Source of the DNA: Leucoraja ocellata
Taxonomy: Eukaryota
Direction of reading: 5' to 3'
Length of the DNA stretch: 64,000 nt
Assembly: GCA_036785375.1 (NCBI GenBank)
Contig: JAWMAR010000085.1
Location: 4,030,001 to 4,094,000, forward strand
How positions within the stretch are numbered: position 1 is the stretch's first letter; every line of letters begins with the position of its first letter. Below the pieces are notes generated by a model. The model worked only from the letters and a program-made list of their open reading frames with translations, was not told the DNA's origin and did not search any database. Of the stretch, positions 2,793-54,722 are shown one piece after another. The position numbers and the translations under genes are program-made.

Positions 2793-4284
2793 AACATAAA
2801 GGTTCTGATAATGATTTCATTTGTAACATCACATCATTGAAGCACAGGAAGATACTGTTAATAAAAATCATAATGACACTGTCAGATGTGCATCATGTCA
2901 TACATCAATATGTACATGACGTGGCTGTTAGGTGTAGTCTGAGGAATCCTGTTTGAAGTAATGTTTGTGCATTCTTCTGTTCCATCTCCCCGATTCCAAT
3001 CACATCACAAATTACCCCACCCCCTCCACATACACCAATTCCTTGTTTCCTCTCCCCATCAATTGTTGATCCTCTCTGCCCTCTAACGTGTGTTCCTGCT
3101 CCCCCTCTCCCTTACGATCTCCTGCTCCCCTTCAATTGCTCCCTGTTCACACGTTTGACTCCTCCTTCAATCTTTTCTCCTTGTCCCGCTTCAATGTCCA
3201 GGCGAACCTCAATCTAACTAAAAGAAAAAACAGCTGCCACAGACAACAAACTCCAGCTGGGTACACCCAGCCCCATGACATCAGATGCTCATCAGTCGGT
3301 GAGTGGGGGAGGTAGTGGGAGGAAGGTAAGCAAGGATGTTGCTTGTCTCCCAGTCAAGTACACGAGCACAAAAGACCACATTTTCCATGCCAGAAACCAC
3401 TGCCAACTTGGTGGATGTGTTCGACTGTCAGGGTTGCACTTCATGAGTCAGAAATCACTTCCAGGAATTTGCTCTCTCAGGATTAGACTCGCCCATCACC
3501 AAGCAGTGAACCAGTAAAGTGCACAGTTGTGGTAGAAGGTTGTATTACAGAAACTGTTGCACAAGAAAGGGTAATTTTTCACCAGAGGATTGTCACAAGT
3601 TGCAGGGTGAGTTATGTCCCTTGTCAGGAAGCAACACATAATTACAAGCAACATGCAGTAGAGTTAGTTTCAATGCCATAATTTTAAAGATTTCACTACA
3701 CTACAATAAAACATAACAGGAGCAGCAGTAGGACATCAGGCCCTTAAAGCTTGCCTCACCTTCTAACAGGGCTGCCAACTCTCACGCATTTCGCCAAATT
3801 CTCACGCTGATCACAAATTTCTCATGCTCTGTCGTGAGAAATTCTGTGATCAACAAGAATTTCAAAACTCATATCAACTGCATGGGCCGCGGGTGTTGGA
3901 GAGCCGGGGCTGAGGGAGGGATGGAAGCAAAAGGGTGGGGACAGGTGCGGACGGGGAGCCGTGGCTGGCGAGTGTTTGCCGGGCTGGCGAGTCGCTCGCT
4001 GCAGCTCCGGCCATGGAGGAGCCCCAGTGCAAGAGTCCCAGGCCATCGGAAGTGTTGCGCCACTGCCATGAGAATCTCTGTGCCAAATTCACCCTGGTGA
4101 CCGGCATGGATCAGGCTGCGGCTCGGTATACCCCCATTGGACAACCAGTGGCTGTTGGAAGTAGGTACCAAGCACTGGGTAGAAACGGTGGAAGATAGTG
4201 GCCTTCAAATGGGGGTGGTTGGAGAAAGCATCCTGCTTGCCTGCTAGATTTTCACTTACTGTAACTGCAGGAAAAAAATTTCCT

Positions 4285-7267: not shown

Positions 7268-7450
7268 AAACACAGTGCTGGAGGAACTCAACAGGTCGGG
7301 CAGCATCCGGGGAGGGAATGGACAGGCAACATTTTGGGTTGGGTCCCTTTTTCGTCTCTTCCCTCCATAAATACTGCCTGACCCACTGAGTTCCTTCAGC
7401 TCTTTTTCTTTTGCTGAAGATTTCCAGCATCTGCAGTTTCTTGTGTCTCA
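7268..7450. repeat. Penelope-derived inverted-repeat element, degenerate
   Basis: acacagtgctggaggaactcaacaggtcgggcagcatc...ctgcctgacccactgagttccttcagc...ccagcatctgcagtttcttg. Confidence 0.75.
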
Positions 7451-10578: not shown

Positions 10579-12655
10579 GAAAGCCATTGCGATTGGCCAG
10601 TAACTTTGGTGATACCTAAATGAGCCACAATTTTGAGAGAGAACATTTAGGATGACAGAGAGTCATCAAATATTTGAGCACAGTACAGGCCATTTGGCCG
10701 AACTGTTTGGGCTGCTGCTTATTCTAATTCCACTCTCCCTCTTCTCTTTGCATACCTTTCAAAATTATTCCTTTATACGAACCTTAATTTTGAAATACAT
10801 TACGGAGCCTTTTCCAACAGCAGATTGCACTAGAGAATTTCCCCAGTTAATAAAAATGATTTTTTTTTGCCATCTATCCTTTTGTTTGTTCTGTAAATGT
10901 CCACAGTTAATGTTCTCCACTTAACACCTCACTGTCCTGGAAATCACGCAGCATTTTTTATTTTAATATTTCATTTCCAAAGCCTTTTAATGAATCATGC
11001 CTTAATCCTCTAAATTTTATTGCAAAAAATCCCCTTTCCAACTGCTTAAATTTCCAGTAAACTGTGACTTGGATAATGATGTTTCTTTGCTCTGCTGAAA
11101 TCTTAATACTGGTTTCTGTACTCAATTATACTACTTACTTTTTACTTTCCCATGTACTCTAGTTATCAGATACATTGACATAAAAACCATAAAAAGCTAT
11201 TATTTTAAGCAGGAAACACAAAACAAGTCATTTAGAAAACCGTGATAAATGTTGGATAGAAAGTATGTCCTTGTGGTCAAAATAGAGAAAATAGATTTTT
11301 CTTTAATAGAAAATCCTTTAGAATAATGGCAATTCATATATTATAATCCCTTTGTATTCAATTGAACTCATTTTCAGACCAAATTACTCAACCCTATTGC
11401 TTTCTCTGCCACATTTTCCAGAAATTATGGTGCAGAAACTTTATACAAAACATACTAAATTTTCACAGCAGTAGACCTAGGAAAATAATAAAATTGTAGT
11501 TTCTATCTACAGCTTTGGTTGACTTTTTCTAAAGAAAAACTAAATGAACGTTGACTTGCGTTAACAAATTTTGATCATTCATAAAACAAACCCCTCAGAA
11601 GGCCAGTTCTGATGTTTCAACTTAATCTCATGTGTGTTATGATACACATTGGACTTAGTTATTCCATTCTATACTCTAGCCACATTGAATTCCTCTTTTT
11701 ACCCTCTCTTGTATGTTAATTTTCTGTGATCATGCTCTAAAATTTACAAATCCCTTCTTCTGGACGTCATGGTTAGTTCTGTTCTCTTCTATTTCCCCAG
11801 TTCATTCCAGTACATCTGTATCGTCAACATCACAATCCACACTACATCTTCTGAATATCTTCTATTCCCTCCAATTCTTCCATTTCCTGCTTTTCCTTTT
11901 GCATGTAAACTTCCCATGAAAACACAGGAGAGACAACAACTGCCCATTTACCTTCTTCCTTCCCACCAAACTGATACCAAATGTTCCTTCAATTGAGAGA
12001 TGATCAATCTGAATTTTTGACTGTCTCTCCATTGGTCCCACTCTACTTCATGTGTACTAAAAGCATTTTATTTTTACTTCAAATTTCTAATACCTTTCAT
12101 GTGTCATGCATGTTAAGCTTGGCAATATTAGGCTAAATGTTAGTATCATCTGACATGGTATAATTTGATAACAGCCCCTGTCGATTTACCCTGAAGTAAA
12201 TCTTAACAGACTAGGTAATCTATGCTTAAAACTGCAGGGTTTAAAGTGGTTTGTGAAACAAAAGTGGGAGCCAATCAATAAATAGATAACTGCAAGGAAG
12301 TATCTAATAACTTTTTGCTCAGGAATAATAATATAATCAGTATAAAAATCAAATGAGAGTGGGGTCAAGTCCTATAAATTTTCTTTGATTGCGACTTCTC
12401 CTAAATAGCTACAATGCGCTGCAATGCTGAGATCTACATTCTGCACGCTGCACCTTCCCCTTTGCTCTAGCAATTGTACTTGAGTTTGACTATGATATAT
12501 CTGATCTGATTGAACAGTATGCAAAACAAAATGTTTCACTGTACGAAGTATAGGGAGAATCTAACAAGAGCCCTATTTTCCTTGATGAGTACATTCAGTG
12601 TTTCATAATTAAACAATTAAACAAATATACAGACTATTCCAGATTTCAAATGTAC

Positions 12656-13018
12656 CTTTCTCAAAGTCACTTCTATTGAAGGTCTCTTCAGATCCATTTC
12701 TGTTGGACTTGGTCACTGATGCTTTCTTTATGGTTTTTTCATCTGTCCGGTCCTTGACTTTTGTTTCTTTTGCAATAATCTCTGACTCCTTGCCTCCAGC
12801 TAAATCCTTCCTGCTGTGTCGATCTGTCTTGGAAGGCGAGGATTTGTCGGGGGACACTTGCTGCTCCCAGAGTGCCCGCAGATGATGCAAATGCCTTTGC
12901 TTGCGTGGATGGAGTCCTGTCAGTTCAATGCACACCTTTAGGTTTGTTACTTCGCTTGTGTGCGAATCTTCTGAATTATCCGTGGAGTCATCATTCATCT
13001 CTTTTTCAGTCCATTCAT
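12656..13018 (-). CDS. BCOR: BCOR exon 8 (long form with the AF9-binding segment)
   Basis: aagtag|AT GAA TGG ACT GAA AAA GAG ATG = DEWTEKEM...TNLKVCIELTGLHPRKQRHLHHLRALWEQQV...SEETFNRSDFEK G|gtacat; 363 nt, phase 1-1. Confidence 0.95.
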
Positions 13019-13206
13019 CTACTTTGAAAACAGCTTAGGTTAATGATAGATGCCCTACACCTAACATTACAAATAAAATCATGTTGCTCTAATGTTCTGA
13101 GAAACACCTAAATATTATGCTTTTGAATATTTCAATAGAGATGTGTTTTTTTCCTGTAAATCACAACAGACTCCTTACAACTCACAAAGAATATGTCTCC
13201 TTAGAT

Positions 13207-16124: not shown

Positions 16125-16640
16125 GTAGAAGCAAGGACTTAGGTTTACAAAACATAGACACAAAGTGCTGGAGTATCTCAGCGGGTCTGAAGATGGCTAC
16201 CAACCTGAAACATCACCTATCCATCTCCTGGGATACTATCTGACCCGCTGAGTTACTCCAGCACTCTGTGTTGTTACTTTTTGAAAGTCATTGTTGTTAC
16301 ACTTAGAAATGTGGGAACGAATGTATGCACATCTAGGTCCCATTAACAGTCAAAATATGATGGGTACACAAGAGTAAAAAAAAGAGCAGCTGGAGAAATT
16401 CAGCAGGTCAGCATCCGTGGAAGGAAATCGACAGTTGACATTTCGGGTCATTACCGTTTATGCAGACTGAAAGAGTAGAGTAGAGTTTGAGAACTGAAGA
16501 ACTGTTAAAATACGAGACATGAATTTACAAATGATGGAATCTTGTGTAGAACACAAAATGCTGGAGTAACTCAGCAGATCAGGCAGCATCTCTGGAGGAC
16601 ATGGATAATTGACATTTCCGTTCGGTATCCTTCTTCATAC
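16125..16640. repeat. Cluster of three Penelope-derived repeat fragments
   Basis: 16155-16270 (gggtctgaagatggctaccaacctgaaacatcacctatcc), 16388-16470 and 16550-16640 all carry the gctggag(t/a)aactcagc motif. Confidence 0.7.
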
Positions 16641-21926: not shown

Positions 21927-22608
21927 CTATTCAATTAAAATGATCACTCAGTGGGGAACTTTATCATTCATTTTTACAGACACAAACCATTATTTCACAA
22001 CAAGAATGAAAATCATCAAGAGGCTTTTCACCTATCAAAAATGTGTGTAAAGGTGGAATGTTTACTGAAAACCTTACATACAATAAATATATACAGTACA
22101 AATGTGTGAAAAAAGCAAAGAGGGAGGATGGGGAAGGGGTGAGGAATTCACCTAATTAATGGACCCATATGTTACATGGCTAGTGTAGGGAGAAAACGTA
22201 TTTTTAAGAGGTCATTAAACAGATCTCTAGTTTATACTGCTACACACTTTCTGGTTTAAGATTATCGTACAAGAACAATAATAGCAGGCAGTGCGAAGCA
22301 TGTTTTAACATGCTACAGAAATACAAAATAAGTGTGGCCATGCAGATTTCCAAAATTCATTCAAATAAGCAGCACAACCATGAATACAAGGACAAAGCCA
22401 TTACATGAAAGTGAACAAGTCTTCATGTTATTTCCTAACCACACTATATTTGGTGATTTTTTATACATACATATTATTTTATCCCTTGTTTTGAAAATAT
22501 GCATTATGTTGAGATGATACGAATGAGATGACTTTGTTAAGAAAACAGAAAATGAATGTGATCTCAATGGTATAACATAAAAACTGGCATCAATTAGACA
22601 AATTTGTT

Positions 22609-22846
22609 TATGAAGGAACTGCAGATGCTGGTTTAAACCAAAGATAGACACAAAATGCTGGAGTAACTCAGCCGAACAGGCAGCATCTCTGGATAGAAGG
22701 AATGGGTGACGATTCGGGTCGAGACCCTTCTTCAGTCCCTTCTTCAGTCTGAAGAAGGGTCTCGATCCGAAACGTCACCCATTCCTTCTATCCAGAGATG
22801 CTGCCTGTCCCACTGAGTTACTCCAGCATTTTGTGTCTATCTTCGG
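22609..22846. mobile_element. Palindromic non-autonomous Penelope-derived element with two back-to-back hammerhead-like cores
   Basis: Inverted arms of about 95 bp (22641-22735 and 22749-22842); 12-bp TSD gacaaatttgtt at 22597-22608 and 22847-22858. Confidence 0.88.
22749..22776 (+). ncRNA. Minimal type I hammerhead ribozyme motif (predicted)
   Basis: CUGAAGA-A-GGGU[CUCG]AUCC-GAA-ACGU-C: conserved core boxes, stem II, a palindromic ACGU minimal stem III and a GUC cleavage triplet. Activity is untested. Confidence 0.65.
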
Positions 22847-22880
22847 GACAAATTTGTTGATTGATGCCAAAACATATATG

Positions 22881-23140: not shown

Positions 23141-23369
23141 TACTTTCATGCTCATGAAATTGTTATGATAGATTAGTCCACTGAATAATTCCTTCATTTC
23201 ATGGCCTAGCAATAGGGTGTATGGAGCAGCCTTCAGAAAGTTTCAGAAACCTATTTTAAGTAGTGTTCATGTCTCTCAAGCAAGAATATTAAACGTTAAA
23301 AATGCTTTATAAAATCAAATATTTATTTAAAATAAAGAAGCACCACTGACAAACAAGTTAACAACTCAC

Positions 23370-26192
23370 CTGTAGTGCTCGTTGTTCTCGACTAAGTTGG
23401 CTAGAGTCTGCATATAGTTCAGTTGTGACACACTTAAATTTATCTCCCACATACCCAGCTGAGTTTGCTATTCGCTTAGTTAAATTAGATTTCTTCGGCT
23501 TCATAAATCTAGCAGCTGTTACCTCCAGATCTTCAGTTCTGTCTTTGGTATCACTGTGATTCAATTGAGCGAAAAACTGCCCAGTTTCAGCACCAAATTC
23601 CTTCTCTGTATTTGTTTTGCCAGAAGAGGTGGCAACATGGTCAAACATTGGACTGTTCTCCGAGACATCAGCAATTAATTGAACTGTTGTGCTTTCTTTG
23701 CTTTGGCTGTCTGAAGTATTTTCTTTGTTTAAGTTTTGATTTGGTAAACAATGGCCCTTTGATAAGTTACAGGTCTCTACTCCCTTATGGGCATCTCTGT
23801 CTTTTTGGATACCATCTTGTATAGAAATGGTTTCCACAGAGTCAACTGTTTTGTCACTGTTTTCCTTTCCAGAATTTTGTTTGTTATTGCCTTCTGATGG
23901 GATGCACTTTTTAGATATTTTTGCTTCAATTTTACCTCGTTGATCATTGTGTTCTAAGATCAGGTGTTTGTCCTTATTATCTTTGGCAAAGGTTTTGCCA
24001 TGATTCTTTGCACTGTGACATAATAGTTCGTTTATTCCTGAAACAAGTAGCTGGTCTGCATTTATTTTTTGAGAAATCTCTGGTGGTCTCTCTCTGGTAA
24101 CAGGCTCTTCGCTGCATCTAAGACGATCATGTGATCTGGATCGCCGTTGTGTTCCTTCACTCCGTTTTTCTTCATGAATGCTGTGTGACGTGATAATAGG
24201 GTTGATCAAATTCTGGGTGTTGTGAAATAGGGTATATTCACTTCTGCACGTTGGCAAGCTGCTATAAGAAAGTCTGTGCTTTGGTGTCAAGTTTCCTGCA
24301 TATAGGTTGCCACTGGGCAATAAGGCAGGATGGGGGAACACGAGTCCTTTGTCGGGTAAGGGAAGGTGGCTAATTGGGATTCCGTCTGGCGTTGAGTAAG
24401 TGAAATACCGATTTGGATACGGTAAAGGTGGGGATAGAAATGTCTCATTTGGAGTTAGAAATATTGAACCTGATGGATGACCACTCTCAGTTGCATGCGA
24501 CACAAAATCTTGACAGCTTCCTTTGGTCCCTTTAGTGGGCTGCTTACTTGGTATTGGAGAGGACTGTCCTGTTTGGTGAATGACAGATGTCTTATTCGAA
24601 GAGTTATTCCTCTGTGCCTTTTCAGACTGAACCCACTCAGTGTTAACATTTGGTGAAGGTGAGGCGGATGCAGGTCGGCCCAATCCAGAGACCGAACATG
24701 GAATATGAGTAACAGAACTATTGGAACTTCCAATCCTTGGACACGAGGAGCTTCTCTGGTGTGGAATTATGCGCTCTAGAGTTTTATTGCTCACCAATAT
24801 ACTACCAGTTGGATGGTCTGCCGGAGAACCGGTACTAGGAATGGCCCAGGTTGAGTGCAATTTATTGATAATAGCAGGCCTTTCAACAAGAAGATCATTA
24901 TGTATTGAAGTTGAAAAGCTTTCAGAATGCGTATCCTTGCTTGCCAATGAAGAGTTGTTTCTCCATTTGCCAGGTGCCACTTTATCAATGCTCTCAGTCT
25001 TTGACACCTGATCACTCGTGATCTCACCACCGCCTACTTTAGAAGACAGATCTAGAGGCTTTTCATTACAGTCTTTGGTGGACGGCTGCTTTTCTTGCTG
25101 CACTGGAGTCTTAGTCATTTTTTGTTCAGGCTGAGTGTTTTGTGGATGTGCTGCTGTTTGTTGGAAGTTTTCACTAGATTCTGGCTTTGAGGTTTTGCCA
25201 TTTACTGATCGAACGGGAGAAGTAAATTCACTACTTAGACTTAAATAACCATGAGGAAGTGCCATTGCAGGAGAAGGCCCAGATATCCTAGCAAGATGCT
25301 TCTGAAATTCAGAACTCTCTCCAATCTGCTGTGAGGTTAGGTGAAGCCGGGAAGATGGTCTTGGAGATTGCAACAGTGAAGCTGGGTCAGCAGAATTTGA
25401 CTTTTCATTAGCTGGAACCCTTGTTTTCTTGTTAGTTGAAATTTGATGAGTCAAAATATGTGGATCAACTGGCAGTCTCGGGTTACCTGTCATTATCCCA
25501 GAAAGGCATTTTTCAGAACAGTGAACCATAGAGGGCATTATGGGTGATGTTGCAGTTGGCGTAATCCTTAGTGGAGAAGGAAGAGATGATGGGATGGGAG
25601 GCAAGCCATAGTGTGATGGTGGTATGTATAAGAAGCGGTCACTGTGACTACAGACGGGCGAATAGGTTATGTGCTGCGGTAAGCCATAAGAGTTCTGCGA
25701 AGGTATCAAACATGTTTTATACATGCTCCTTGGGTAATTGCTTGATGAGTCCACAAATGAATACATGCCTGTTGCTGGGCTCTCTATGTATGGATTAACC
25801 CACGGAAGTCGCAAGTAACTTGGACCAGTTCCATTCACCGGAGTTTGTTTGCCAGCTGAAGATCCTTCTAAACCCATTGGTTCACCTCTGGCACCAGCAG
25901 CATTTTGTAGACCAGGAGGTGATTTGTACAGCGTACTAAAGCTTTCATGAGCCTTTGTGCAACCACTGCCGTTTTCCAGTGTTTCTGGTGGATGTACTTT
26001 GTAATTCAAATCAGGCATTCTATCGGTCATAAATCCCAGACTGGTCATGGCCACTGCAGCCTCTTGTTCCTTTTCATTTCTTAGCCCATGTGCAGTAGGG
26101 TATATAATACCATTATGGTTTCTGAGCTCCTCTTGCATGATCCCACTGGCAGCTCGAACTCGATCAATCTGTCTCACTGAGGCCGCATCCAC
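23370..26192 (-). CDS. BCOR: BCOR large exon 4 (2823 nt, 941 codons)
   Basis: ORF 23358..26192 contains YLRLPWVNPY, YSPVC..RFLY, KPLDLSSK, QRSSSCPR, GRPASASP and KRIANSAGYVGDKFKCVTTELYADSSQLSREQRALQ, all BCOR hallmarks. Acceptor tctag|GTG; donor CAG|gtgagt. Confidence 0.98.
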
Positions 26193-28400
26193 CTAGACAA
26201 AATTTCATAAAGATTAATTGTACATATATTATTTGAGAAACACAAACATCTTCTGAGTTTTTTTGTTTTTTTTCTGTTTTTCTCATCTGTTATTTTAATA
26301 AAATGATAAAATCCATTGTCAATAAGTATATGAAGGAAAAATAATCCAACTGCTGTAACCTAACAAAACATTACTGGATAAAGCAACCAGACAGTAGAAT
26401 GGAAAGTATTTATATTCTATGTCTTGGCTCTTACCAGAACATTTCTGTTTATAGAGATAAAATGAAGTAACTGTTCTAATGATCACCAACTAATTTACTG
26501 TGCCCCAATTTAGTACCTATTTAACTGCACTGCTTCCTTGCCACTGATTATCTTGCTCCCACAAATTGTTCACCAACTCCCATTCATTCTATCTCCTTCT
26601 AGTACGTCAGCCATCATTGAGTGAGGTGTAAAATCAAATGTACCGGTTACATAATCAGCTAATTTTTTGGCATTTTCAGCTCAATCATTTCAAGCATCAC
26701 CGTGCTTTATCATCACAGTGCAGATTATTTGCTAATGCCCAAACAACAGTAACAATTTCCAATTACATTGTGCTTTTAACACAGGAAAGCTACCCAAAGC
26801 TGATCACAGCACATTCTCAAACAAAAAGTTGAAGCCGAGTTATACAAGAATTTGTTAGGGAAAATGATCGAAAGATATGGGTCTAAAAGAAGAGAGAGAG
26901 CAGTTTAGGAATGGATCTTGGCAACTTCAGGAATAATTGCCAATGGTGGATATTTTGGAAATTGAAATAATACCAATATAGGGAGGATCGAGACCACAGA
27001 TTTCATTCCAAAAGCAAGACCCATCACAAGGTGTTTAAGTAATTCAAGAGAGCACAGTTCCCTCATTCTCTCTATGCTTATGACCATTTCCATAGGCAAG
27101 GAATTAACAGATTGACTCTGACTATCTCCAAAGATGTAGCAATTTATTCTGCTATTGGTTTCCTTACTCTCTCTTCACCTCAGTTCTGTTCTGTACTGCC
27201 CCACTCCTTCAACACCTGAACTGTTACCATTGTGAGTTTTTGCCAAGATCCTGGAATTAAAAAGTGAGCAAACAGCAGCAAAAATCCCACCTAGTCCCTG
27301 ACCCATGTTAGTTGTTAGTTCAGGTTTGCATTCTGATAAGTATTCAAGGGTAGGTTGGATTGGCCCAGTGGCTGCTTTATCCAGTTCAGGATGATTTATT
27401 TAGTATTGCTGAATGGGTGCACTGTTTGGGATCAATGGCAATGCATGTACAGAATAGTGTCTTTTTATCCCTTTTCTCCAAATGGCTCTAGGCAGGATTG
27501 GGTAAAAAAAAAAAAATGCATGTAGTCGGGCTTGGGTCAGATGGCCACGGTCAGGATTTAATTTTACCCCTTACAGCTAAACTGTAATGCTCTGTTGAGT
27601 TTATGATAGCAGGAAGCCATTGATGGCTGTTGTATTGTACATAATCTTGGACCAAATCTTGCTCATTCAACTGATTAACAATCCCAATCCCATTGACAGG
27701 TTGCCTTCATTGAAAACCATCCATAGCCACTAAATAACCCTGCCACATACGTCAATAACTTGCATTCATGTTTGAGGGGCCTCTATACACAACAGTGCAC
27801 TGACACACCCCATCCTAACTCAACAGTAACATAAGCCTCCTGTATTGACAATTTAGCCAGCCTACTATCCCACAATCCTTCAATTCTATGTCCAAGCTTC
27901 AAATCCCACCAGATAGCAAATCCCCAAAGCCTTGGCATTGCTCAAGCCCATCACCTTGTCATTTCAATCTTATACATTATGATTCATAAACCACCACATT
28001 TTAATGCAAGTGGTGTCCTCATCATTCCTTCTCCACACCAATCAAATCTGGCAAACTTGCTTCCAGGCCTGACACAGTTCAATCCCTTCCCCTCCCTAAC
28101 CTCCAATCCCTTCCCATCTTGCAAATACATGTACCTAATATCTTAAGCCCCAAAACTGCAATTGGGCTTCAGGCATAAATGAAAATTGTAGCAGGGTTGG
28201 AGAGGGGACAGAGGAGTCATGCTGCCCACCGATCTCATGAATCAAAAAATATATCATTTTTTTAAAATATATATTACTAAATAGTTCAGCCAATCTTTTT
28301 ATTTTTATTCCTGTTGCTTCTACATTGAAATGGTACCACCTGGGATTTAATGTTGCATTCAAGTCTAATTTTCTCAATCAGTTTAGCTTTATGATTGATG

Positions 28401-28528
28401 AAGAAGGGTTTCGGCCCGAAACGTTGCCTATTTCCTTCGCTCCATAGATGCTGCTGCACCCGCTGAGTTTCTCCAGCTTTTCTGTGTACCTTCGATTCTC
28501 CAGCATCTGCAGTTCCTTCTTAAACACA
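28401..28528 (+). mobile_element. Short Penelope-derived insertion with an 18-bp TSD
   Basis: aagaagggtttcggcccgaaacgttgcc...ccagcatctgcagttccttcttaaacaca flanked by ttagctttatgattgatg at 28383-28400 and 28529-28546. Confidence 0.88.
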
Positions 28529-28597
28529 TTAGCTTTATGATTGATGTAGCTGCTAATATTTGAACAGCCTTTTGCAAAACTTGAATAAGTAGTATAC

Positions 28598-29067
28598 CGA
28601 AGATAGGCACAAATCGTTGGAGTAACTCAGCGGAGCAGGCAGCATCTCTGGAGAAAAATAGGTGACGTTCTGGGTTATAACGCATCTTCAGACCAATAGT
28701 AGAGTTTGGGGTGGGGGCGGGGGGGGGGGGGGGGGGGGGGAGGGTGGGGAGGAATAAACAGGAGGCGAGAAAAGGCCAGCACGAATCAGGACCTCAGGAA
28801 GGGTTGTCCCCATAATGGCCCGTTGTTGGCTGGGGAAGATGAGATAATAAGGTATAAAGATGTGAACAGTGGAATTGGTAGGGCGACTAGGATGGGGGGG
28901 GGGGGGGGGGGGGGGGGGAGAGAAGAATGTAAAAGTTACTTGAAATTAGAAAAATCAATATTCATACTGCTGGGCTGTAAGCTGCCCAAGCAAAATATAA
29001 GGTACTGTTCCTCTAATTTGTATGTGGCCTCACTCTGACAGTGGAGGAGGCCCAGGACAGAAAGATC
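28598..29067 (-). mobile_element. 5'-truncated Penelope-like element (GIY-YIG C-terminus, 3'UTR, terminal repeat)
   Basis: 29067-28936 translates DLSVLGLLHCQSEATYKLEEQYLIFCLGSLQPSSMNIDFSNFK*, resembling the PLE endonuclease C-terminus. It is followed by C-rich UTR and the terminal repeat with a decayed ctgaaga core. Confidence 0.82.
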
Positions 29068-54499: not shown

Positions 54500-54722
54500 C
54501 GAGGAACTACAGATGCTGGTGTACAAAACAAGACATAACGTGCTGGTGTAACTGAGAGCTCAGACAGCATCTCTGGAGAACATGGATAGGCACGTTTGCC
54601 TGCAACCCCCCCCCCCCCCCACAATCAGTCTGCAGAAGAGTCCCGGCCTGAAACATCACCCTATTTTTTTTTCTCCAGAGATGCTGCCTGACCCGATGGA
54701 TTACTCCAGCACTTTGTGCCCT
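54500..54722. repeat. Penelope-derived inverted-repeat element
   Basis: gaggaactacagatgctgg...cagcatctctggagaa / ttctccagagatgctgcctgacccgatggattactccagcac, with a decayed core ctgcagaagagtcccggcctgaaacatc. Confidence 0.8.

Follow-up and report, generated by a model that had tools for sequence, protein, structure and literature searches.

A palindromic insert in an intron of a BCOR-family gene of Leucoraja ocellata as the probable product of head-to-head insertion of truncated Penelope-like element ends

The 238-bp palindromic insert found in a 64,000-nucleotide stretch of Leucoraja ocellata DNA (the window; contig JAWMAR010000085.1, positions 4,030,001 to 4,094,000) is very probably composed of two 5'-truncated pLTR ends of a Penelope-like retrotransposon (PLE) lying head to head, a dead-end product made once at this site and not moving as a unit. 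This reading rests on the identity of the arms with the PLE 3' end, the one-sided tail, the unique centre, the variable target-site duplications (TSDs), kilobase-scale insertions of the same layout and neutral decay. The features are as follows.

22597-22608, plus strand: left putative TSD, 12 bp, exact repeat of 22847-22858
22609-22637, minus strand: PLE 3' tail, 29 nt, on the left arm only, beyond the 98-nt arm
22638-22735, minus strand: left arm, inverted pLTR copy, 5'-truncated so that it starts at hammerhead C3, matching endonuclease-linked pLTRs
22708-22735, minus strand: minimal hammerhead core, A15.1 to U at 22712, predicted inactive (fails the intact-motif descriptor)
22736-22748, no strand: junction, consisting of T and a local 11-nt re-copy of 22725-22735 (CCCTTCTTCAG), read from the sequence
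22744-22846, plus strand: right arm, 5'-truncated pLTR copy (unit 3811-3905), ending at the tail-less 3' site
22747-22778, plus strand: intact minimal type I hammerhead motif (passes the descriptor)
22847-22858, plus strand: right putative TSD, 12 bp, exact repeat of the left one
28399-28528, plus strand (also given as 28383-28546): young-subfamily single-arm stub, tailed, flanked by an 18-bp TSD and sharing 96.9% identity with unit 3817-3946
28593-29067, minus strand: longer 5'-truncated PLE copy with endonuclease end, pyrimidine-rich 3' UTR and tail-less pLTR

The 12-bp repeat GACAAATTTGTT is exact at both ends of the insert and, judged from the repeat itself, is probably a TSD. Counted from hammerhead C3 the arms are 98 nt each with 6 mismatches (94% alike). 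An earlier, sequence-only reading had given the same insert length and TSD and arms of about 95 bp, all of which held. The left arm alone possesses the additional 29 nt of tail. RNA of the insert was predicted to fold into a single long hairpin (-191.4 kcal/mol, z = -24.6), with no equally stable structure among 200 shuffles. BLAST revealed 20 merged loci of the repeat in the window, the insert counted in, and the earlier figure of about 15 relatives was therefore slightly low.

Sequence comparison shows that both arms derive from the pLTR at the 3' end of an EN+ PLE whose linker is Cys-rich. The left arm including its tail aligned to 3816-3938, and the right arm to 3811-3905, of a young intact unit of 3,946 bp in which hammerhead C3 is position 3816. 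Identity to this young unit was 77-81% and to older endonuclease-linked copies 90-93%, the left arm giving 92.6% with the pLTR of one such copy (L122) and 90.3% with that of another (L112). The PLE origin proposed by the sequence-only reading is thus borne out, while the same attachment to endonuclease-coding DNA, together with kilobase-long insertions of like layout, speaks against its separate short family. The endonuclease-coding relatives were reached through the fragment at 28593-29067, with 166,660 first-look candidates for that domain. This fragment (28598-29067 in the earlier description) had been called a GIY-YIG-coding piece of a PLE; it does carry a PLE endonuclease end with the repeat, but its C-terminal endonuclease end is broken by stops and the GIY-YIG motif itself is absent.

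In longer copies the repeat is directly preceded by sequence coding for a reverse transcriptase (RT), a CxxxxCxxC linker and GIY-YIG. The 1,233-aa open frame of the young unit matched RVT_1 (E=1.6e-6) and GIY-YIG (E=0.013), both below the Pfam cut-off, and a 484-aa copy gave E=1.5e-5 and E=5e-4, respectively. Homologues numbered 1,268, the most identical named protein relatives being from sharks and rays (63-76%). A Cys-rich linker motif between RT and EN is described as common to Neptune and Nematis (PMC8557442), and by its CxxxxCxxC linker the source element would be a Neptune/Nematis-type EN+ PLE. With the linker and the reported host range taken together, Neptune is more likely than Nematis because the Neptune clade has been reported from fishes (PMC4209133). 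Long elements end at about 3909 or 3946, the tail of young long copies is 37 nt, and the first Met is situated some 40 nt beyond the tail. At 29 of the 30 loci with an intact ORF start (24 sites) an upstream partial copy was present, in the tandem or partial-tandem arrangement that forms pLTRs.

One locus (L156-L157; G000 C8:5606139-5616717) is a three-unit tandem of the intact element, its 3,946-bp copies being 100% identical and bounded by a 16-bp TSD, which argues for recent activity. Ahead of the RT, its ORF contains a long insert, some 330 aa of Pro-rich sequence. For a related organism, single-cell RNA reads (runs X22 and X23) map over L157:1100-1670, which comprises the 3' UTR and the end of the endonuclease; most lie on one strand, with a depth in the UTR of about 1,300 against 100 on the other. 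These reads may reflect sense transcripts of longer copies.

The abundance of the arms was estimated from 120 stretches of 10 kb, taken at round coordinates of large contigs and so not strictly random. A profile search revealed 559 arms and 99 head-to-head pairs, with none in reversed decoys, extrapolating to 1.4-1.8 million arms (about 1.6) and 0.22-0.34 million short palindromes (about 0.28), in keeping with the very high abundance supposed earlier. Exact core words number 21,383 of the old type and 36,465 of the young type genome-wide; both arm types were found attached to endonuclease DNA, and no sequence class limited to short copies was seen among them. The 3' ends of the arms fall in two peaks, with and without tail. 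Among the 99 short pairs, 72 join a tailed to a tail-less arm, 3 are tail/tail, 8 tail-less/tail-less and 16 unclassified (p = 2e-12). TSDs of 11-20 bp (mode 14; control 0) were recovered in 37 of 83 pairs tested, which agrees with the long, variable TSDs described before, and TSDs of 9-19 bp in 35 of 148 single arms (control 1). The low recovery may be due to decay in older copies.

The same layout extends to much longer insertions. Four of 19 long loci are head to head; arms at three loci (L162, L163 and L171) end at 3909-3912 and 3945-3946 with TSDs of 13-15 bp, and in kilobase-long pairs the two arms begin at 666 and 1594, 1031 and 1759, or 2779 and 221. The insert is the short end of a continuum with these kilobase-long inverted insertions.

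The centres of the pairs differ. The 35-nt junction word of the insert has a single match in 3.44 Gb, namely itself, as against 21,383 for the core word. Its re-copy overlaps the templated TCAGT preceding the right core. The 37 scorable pairs with both cleavage-site motifs showed 28 spacer lengths, and many of their junctions contain local re-copies; the most frequent one (4 of 37), an overlap at TCAG-W-CTGA, was seen with arms of the young and of the old type. Exact matches to the simple junction CCCTTCTTCAG-W-CTGAAGAAGGG number 1,683, which shared microhomology explains, and some propagation could be hidden among them. A separate short non-coding family moving as a palindrome, as proposed by the sequence-only reading, is at odds with the unique centre and the 28 spacer lengths. 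MITEs have a TSD of fixed length, whereas here the arms are retroelement ends, the ends are asymmetric, the TSDs vary from 11 to 20 bp and the centres are not shared; the earlier view that this is no DNA-transposon MITE is upheld on the last two counts. Likeness to MITEs (as defined in PMC8969392) lies in the short length, lack of coding capacity, inverted arms and high copy number. Because its arms are the PLE 3' end, its tail is one-sided, centres differ and its own centre is unique, the insert is neither a MITE nor a self-spreading family; it represents, in its shortest form, the insertion type described as "inverted 5'-truncated copy plus tail".

This layout has been published for EN+ PLEs (PMC8557442; Adineta Pen2a, PMC3846280; D. 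virilis Penelope, PMC2377424), the inverted copy with tail being described in the first two. The likeness covers the head-to-head inverted pLTRs with a tail of 30-40 bp on one side (29 nt here, 37 nt in young long copies), the TSD, the partial tandems and the RT and GIY-YIG ORF of the source element. The present insertions differ in having arms of only about 100-130 nt, no ORF and an estimated 0.22-0.34 million copies, and in a sharp 5' stop at the hammerhead edge, of which passages of these three papers hold no mention.

Hammerhead motifs lie on both strands as had been described, at 22749-22776 (+) without mismatch and at 22735-22708 (-) with GAAA changed to GAAT; none occurred in 100 shuffles (chance expectation 0.00). 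The plus-strand arm passes the minimal type I descriptor, with the palindromic ACGU helix III that had been recognised; it consists of a 2-bp stem I, CUGAAGA, an extra A, a 4-bp stem II and GAAACGUC, and the predicted cut is after 22776. The minus-strand arm fails at A15.1, and this core, which is the sense one in the host pre-mRNA, carries A15.1 to U. Rfam, which had been suggested as a check, reported no hammerhead in the window (4,227 families, E<=1). The min-HHRs of metazoan PLE pLTRs (PMC4209133) share the CUGANGA/GAAA core, the extra nucleotide after A9, G10.1-C11.1, the palindromic 15.2/16.2 and the lack of helix III; the putative hammerhead described here, recognised by its motif, differs in having a stem I of only 2 bp and a stem II of 4 bp. 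Min-HHRs are mostly dispersed single motifs from truncated PLEs, and opposite-strand hammerhead pairs 100-700 bp apart had already been noted in Schistosoma (PMC4209133). The passages and the two supplement files of that paper covered here do not mention cartilaginous fishes; a further supplement may list such motifs.

In 252 copies the non-CpG core positions were 0.92 conserved compared with a downstream median of 0.91 (p = 0.17), an outcome that the sequence-only reading had itself named as counting against it. CpG decay was seen at G12 and the ACGU palindrome, and stem pair variants affected one side only, U-A becoming U-G at 10.4-11.4 in 42 copies and at 2.1-1.1 in 59. Among 356 arms reaching the core, 31 intact motifs were left in 1.2 Mb, and of the 99 pairs one had two intact motifs and four at least one. 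Formation of the plus-strand hammerhead within the insert was calculated to cost 52.5 kcal/mol, and predicted folding gave no hammerhead monomer fold (stem II pair probability 0.0), the core being masked in the hairpin. The stubs decay neutrally, which says nothing on the ribozyme of the source element. Since the core decays like its flanks, few motifs are intact and the hairpin masks the core, the hammerhead is a passenger in the stubs; it is conserved in source elements only. For the anole element it is reported that cleavage depends on protein and that insertion proceeds without cleavage (PMC11167929). A result of Lunse et al. 2017 on hammerhead dimers is given in the review PMC6765202.

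The 5' ends of the arms cluster at the front edge of the hammerhead. The stop hazard per 10 nt was 0.38 at this edge, compared with 0.035-0.064 inside the pLTR and 0.054 far upstream; in the pyrimidine tract adjoining the edge, where the profile is imprecise, it was 0.21. Of 304 high-scoring arms, 91 start at -6..+1 and three near the cut site (+26..+31). Within 5 nt the template match is lost in 62 of 74 solo cores, compared with 17 of 60 long cores, and 54% of the 36,465 exact young-type cores lose it within 6 nt upstream while 46% keep ATCAGT, part of which loss may be subfamily variation. Ten distinct young insertions were fetched: six start at the edge with a TSD and four run on. Loose ends at -3 and -2 stand out in sequence runs of two related organisms. 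Tailed and tail-less arms have their median 5' ends at nearly the same place (-2 and -4.5 nt).

The 29 loci with an upstream copy behave otherwise: in two the upstream copy starts within the pLTR, and in the other 27 it continues past the edge, with no stop there in any of these long-tandem passes, albeit in copies selected for long, processive synthesis. Because of these 0 stops in 27 passes, the front-edge stop points to a separate short RNA template rather than to a stall, with the reservation that long copies are selected for processivity. An RNA start as the cause of the front edge is a tentative proposal, to which we give somewhat less than even weight. The edge reads TCAGTC, a sequence that resembles an initiator and, with the pyrimidine tract preceding it, also a 3' splice site. 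The D. virilis Penelope element has an intron whose end lies at helix I (PMC4209133). A cap-derived G at the edge was not in excess in 18 sampled solos (5, p = 0.52), and G before AGT was at chance level in the first 100 of 3,556 genome-wide matches listed (26, p = 0.54). No splice joint at the edge was present among the 15 joints listed per RNA read set (96 and 36 further), and RNA runs of the related organism had no read-start peak at the edge; dominated by dispersed copies, they are uninformative on the start site.

Several other accounts of the edge were tried and rejected. An apparent G excess (11 of 23) came from a set that included palindrome junctions and was not upheld in later samples. 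An intron running from the ORF stop as far as the CAG ahead of the hammerhead was not supported: 96 copies lacked a conserved GT donor, and no genomic copy was cleanly spliced. For 5' transduction from solo donors, a distant upstream TSD was found in 7 of 73 cases, compared with 8 of 73 in the downstream control. Length-limited synthesis was discarded since tailed and tail-less arms stop at about one place and not 37 nt apart, and a general RT stall at the edge was set aside on the 27 passes, selected as they are for long synthesis.

As to mechanism, the GIY-YIG endonuclease would nick both strands about 12-14 bp apart, and each 3'-OH would prime RT, one at the start site at the tail end and the other at a tail-less site 30-37 nt inside. 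Both cDNAs would halt at the hammerhead front edge, by run-off at a template RNA end near -3, and the two cDNA ends would be joined by microhomology at the TCAG-W-CTGA palindrome with small local re-copies. The protein of an anole PLE, Poseidon PAc, nicks and extends both strands in vitro, with RT starting at two internal sites bounding the tail and the hammerhead dispensable for insertion (PMC11167929); these two start sites predict the two classes of 3' end seen here. The PAc ORF starts inside the hammerhead, in contrast to the first Met past the tail and the Cys-rich linker of Neptune/Nematis type in the present element.

Two-strand priming is moderately favoured over fold-back. Single priming followed by fold-back or template switch, in which the inverted arm comes from one cDNA or RNA, is somewhat unlikely. 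Self-priming on an antisense template has been proposed and palindromic junctions read in this way (PMC3846280), and the recurrent junction at TCAG-W-CTGA and the local re-copies at many junctions suit it; against this, the very unlike arm 5' ends of the kilobase-long pairs would need a large loop or deletion, and the pairing of tail with no tail fits two independent start sites. Genomic scars cannot tell twin priming from single priming then fold-back. A palindrome that is itself a mobile MITE-like or retrozyme-like unit, its paired hammerheads processing its RNA, is highly improbable. The MITE-like look, the TSD and the roughly 0.28 million short palindromes extrapolated gave it some appeal, but it must contend with the unique centre, asymmetric ends and variable TSD, with a hairpin masking the core, with the scarcity of pairs retaining intact motifs and with 5' ends lying off the cut site. 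Moreover, opposite-strand cores cannot pair as a cis dimer in one RNA. Animal non-LTR retrozymes, reported in the sole chondrichthyan sampled, are likewise non-coding and PLE-pLTR-related with a type I hammerhead (bioRxiv 10.64898/2026.07.22.740005), but are head-to-tail tandems with a hammerhead per unit; the insert is head to head, shows no sign of unit propagation, and belongs to a population in which, of 304 high-scoring arms, only 3 begin close to the cut site.

Also unlikely is a PLE derivative that is non-autonomous and SINE-like: solo pLTRs of 100-130 nt would be transcribed from the front edge and mobilised in trans, palindromes arising from two such RNAs. The 5' ends fixed at the edge in tailed and tail-less arms alike, the early loss of match in 54% of young cores and the absence of edge stops in the tandem passes agree with it. 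Both arm types are attached to endonuclease DNA, however, with no short-only class, and neither core selection in dispersed copies nor a cap-G signature was detected; transcripts from the 5' pLTR of full-length tandems would yield the same short products, with no separate family required.

A further reading, which we put forward with reserve and as possible rather than probable, takes the million-plus stubs to be for PLEs what strong-stop DNA is for retroviruses: RNA would start at the front edge of the hammerhead (TCA+1GTC), priming by the protein at its two start sites in the 5' pLTR, on both nicked strands, would be followed by run-off at the RNA 5' end, and long tandems would come from another template, read-through or ribozyme-circularised RNA. 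If the strong-stop reading is true, the stubs map two RNA templates and two-strand priming in a class whose cycle is unsolved.

As an element the insert is an ordinary dead-end PLE insertion of published layout, and its value is as a record of PLE insertion. How PLEs form tandem and inverted structures is stated to be open (PMC8557442, PMC11167929). Testable predictions follow from a genome in which young intact masters accompany about 1.6 million arms: that two priming sites are used, one per strand, and that 5' ends stop at a fixed place, the hammerhead edge, which long copies read past. No paper devoted to such stubs in cartilaginous fish was found in a search that left most subscription papers outside. 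In the annotation of shark and ray genomes such stubs can be mistaken for MITEs, SINEs or miRNA-like hairpins.

The insert is intronic: it lies in a BCOR-family gene encoded by the minus strand, about 500 bp from the large exon of that gene. BCOR-domain exons were detected on this strand at 930-1307 and 12612-13034 (77 of 147 frames scanned), and the best Atlas match of a 944-aa minus-strand frame at 23361-26192 is BCL-6 corepressor (0.94). Long hairpins in such introns could be substrates of A-to-I editing. Elsewhere in the window, the young stub at 28399-28528 adjoins the older, longer PLE copy on the opposite strand. Other decayed head-to-head or rearranged pairs lie at 54502-54718, 7270-7442 and 16142-16271, the first of which has kept a piece of the C-rich tract at its centre. 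An RT fragment is located at 1521-1853 (+; Pfam RVT_1, E = 7e-5), and an AT/GT microsatellite at 2727-2801 gives spurious Rfam matches to mir-297 and mir-466 below the gathering score.
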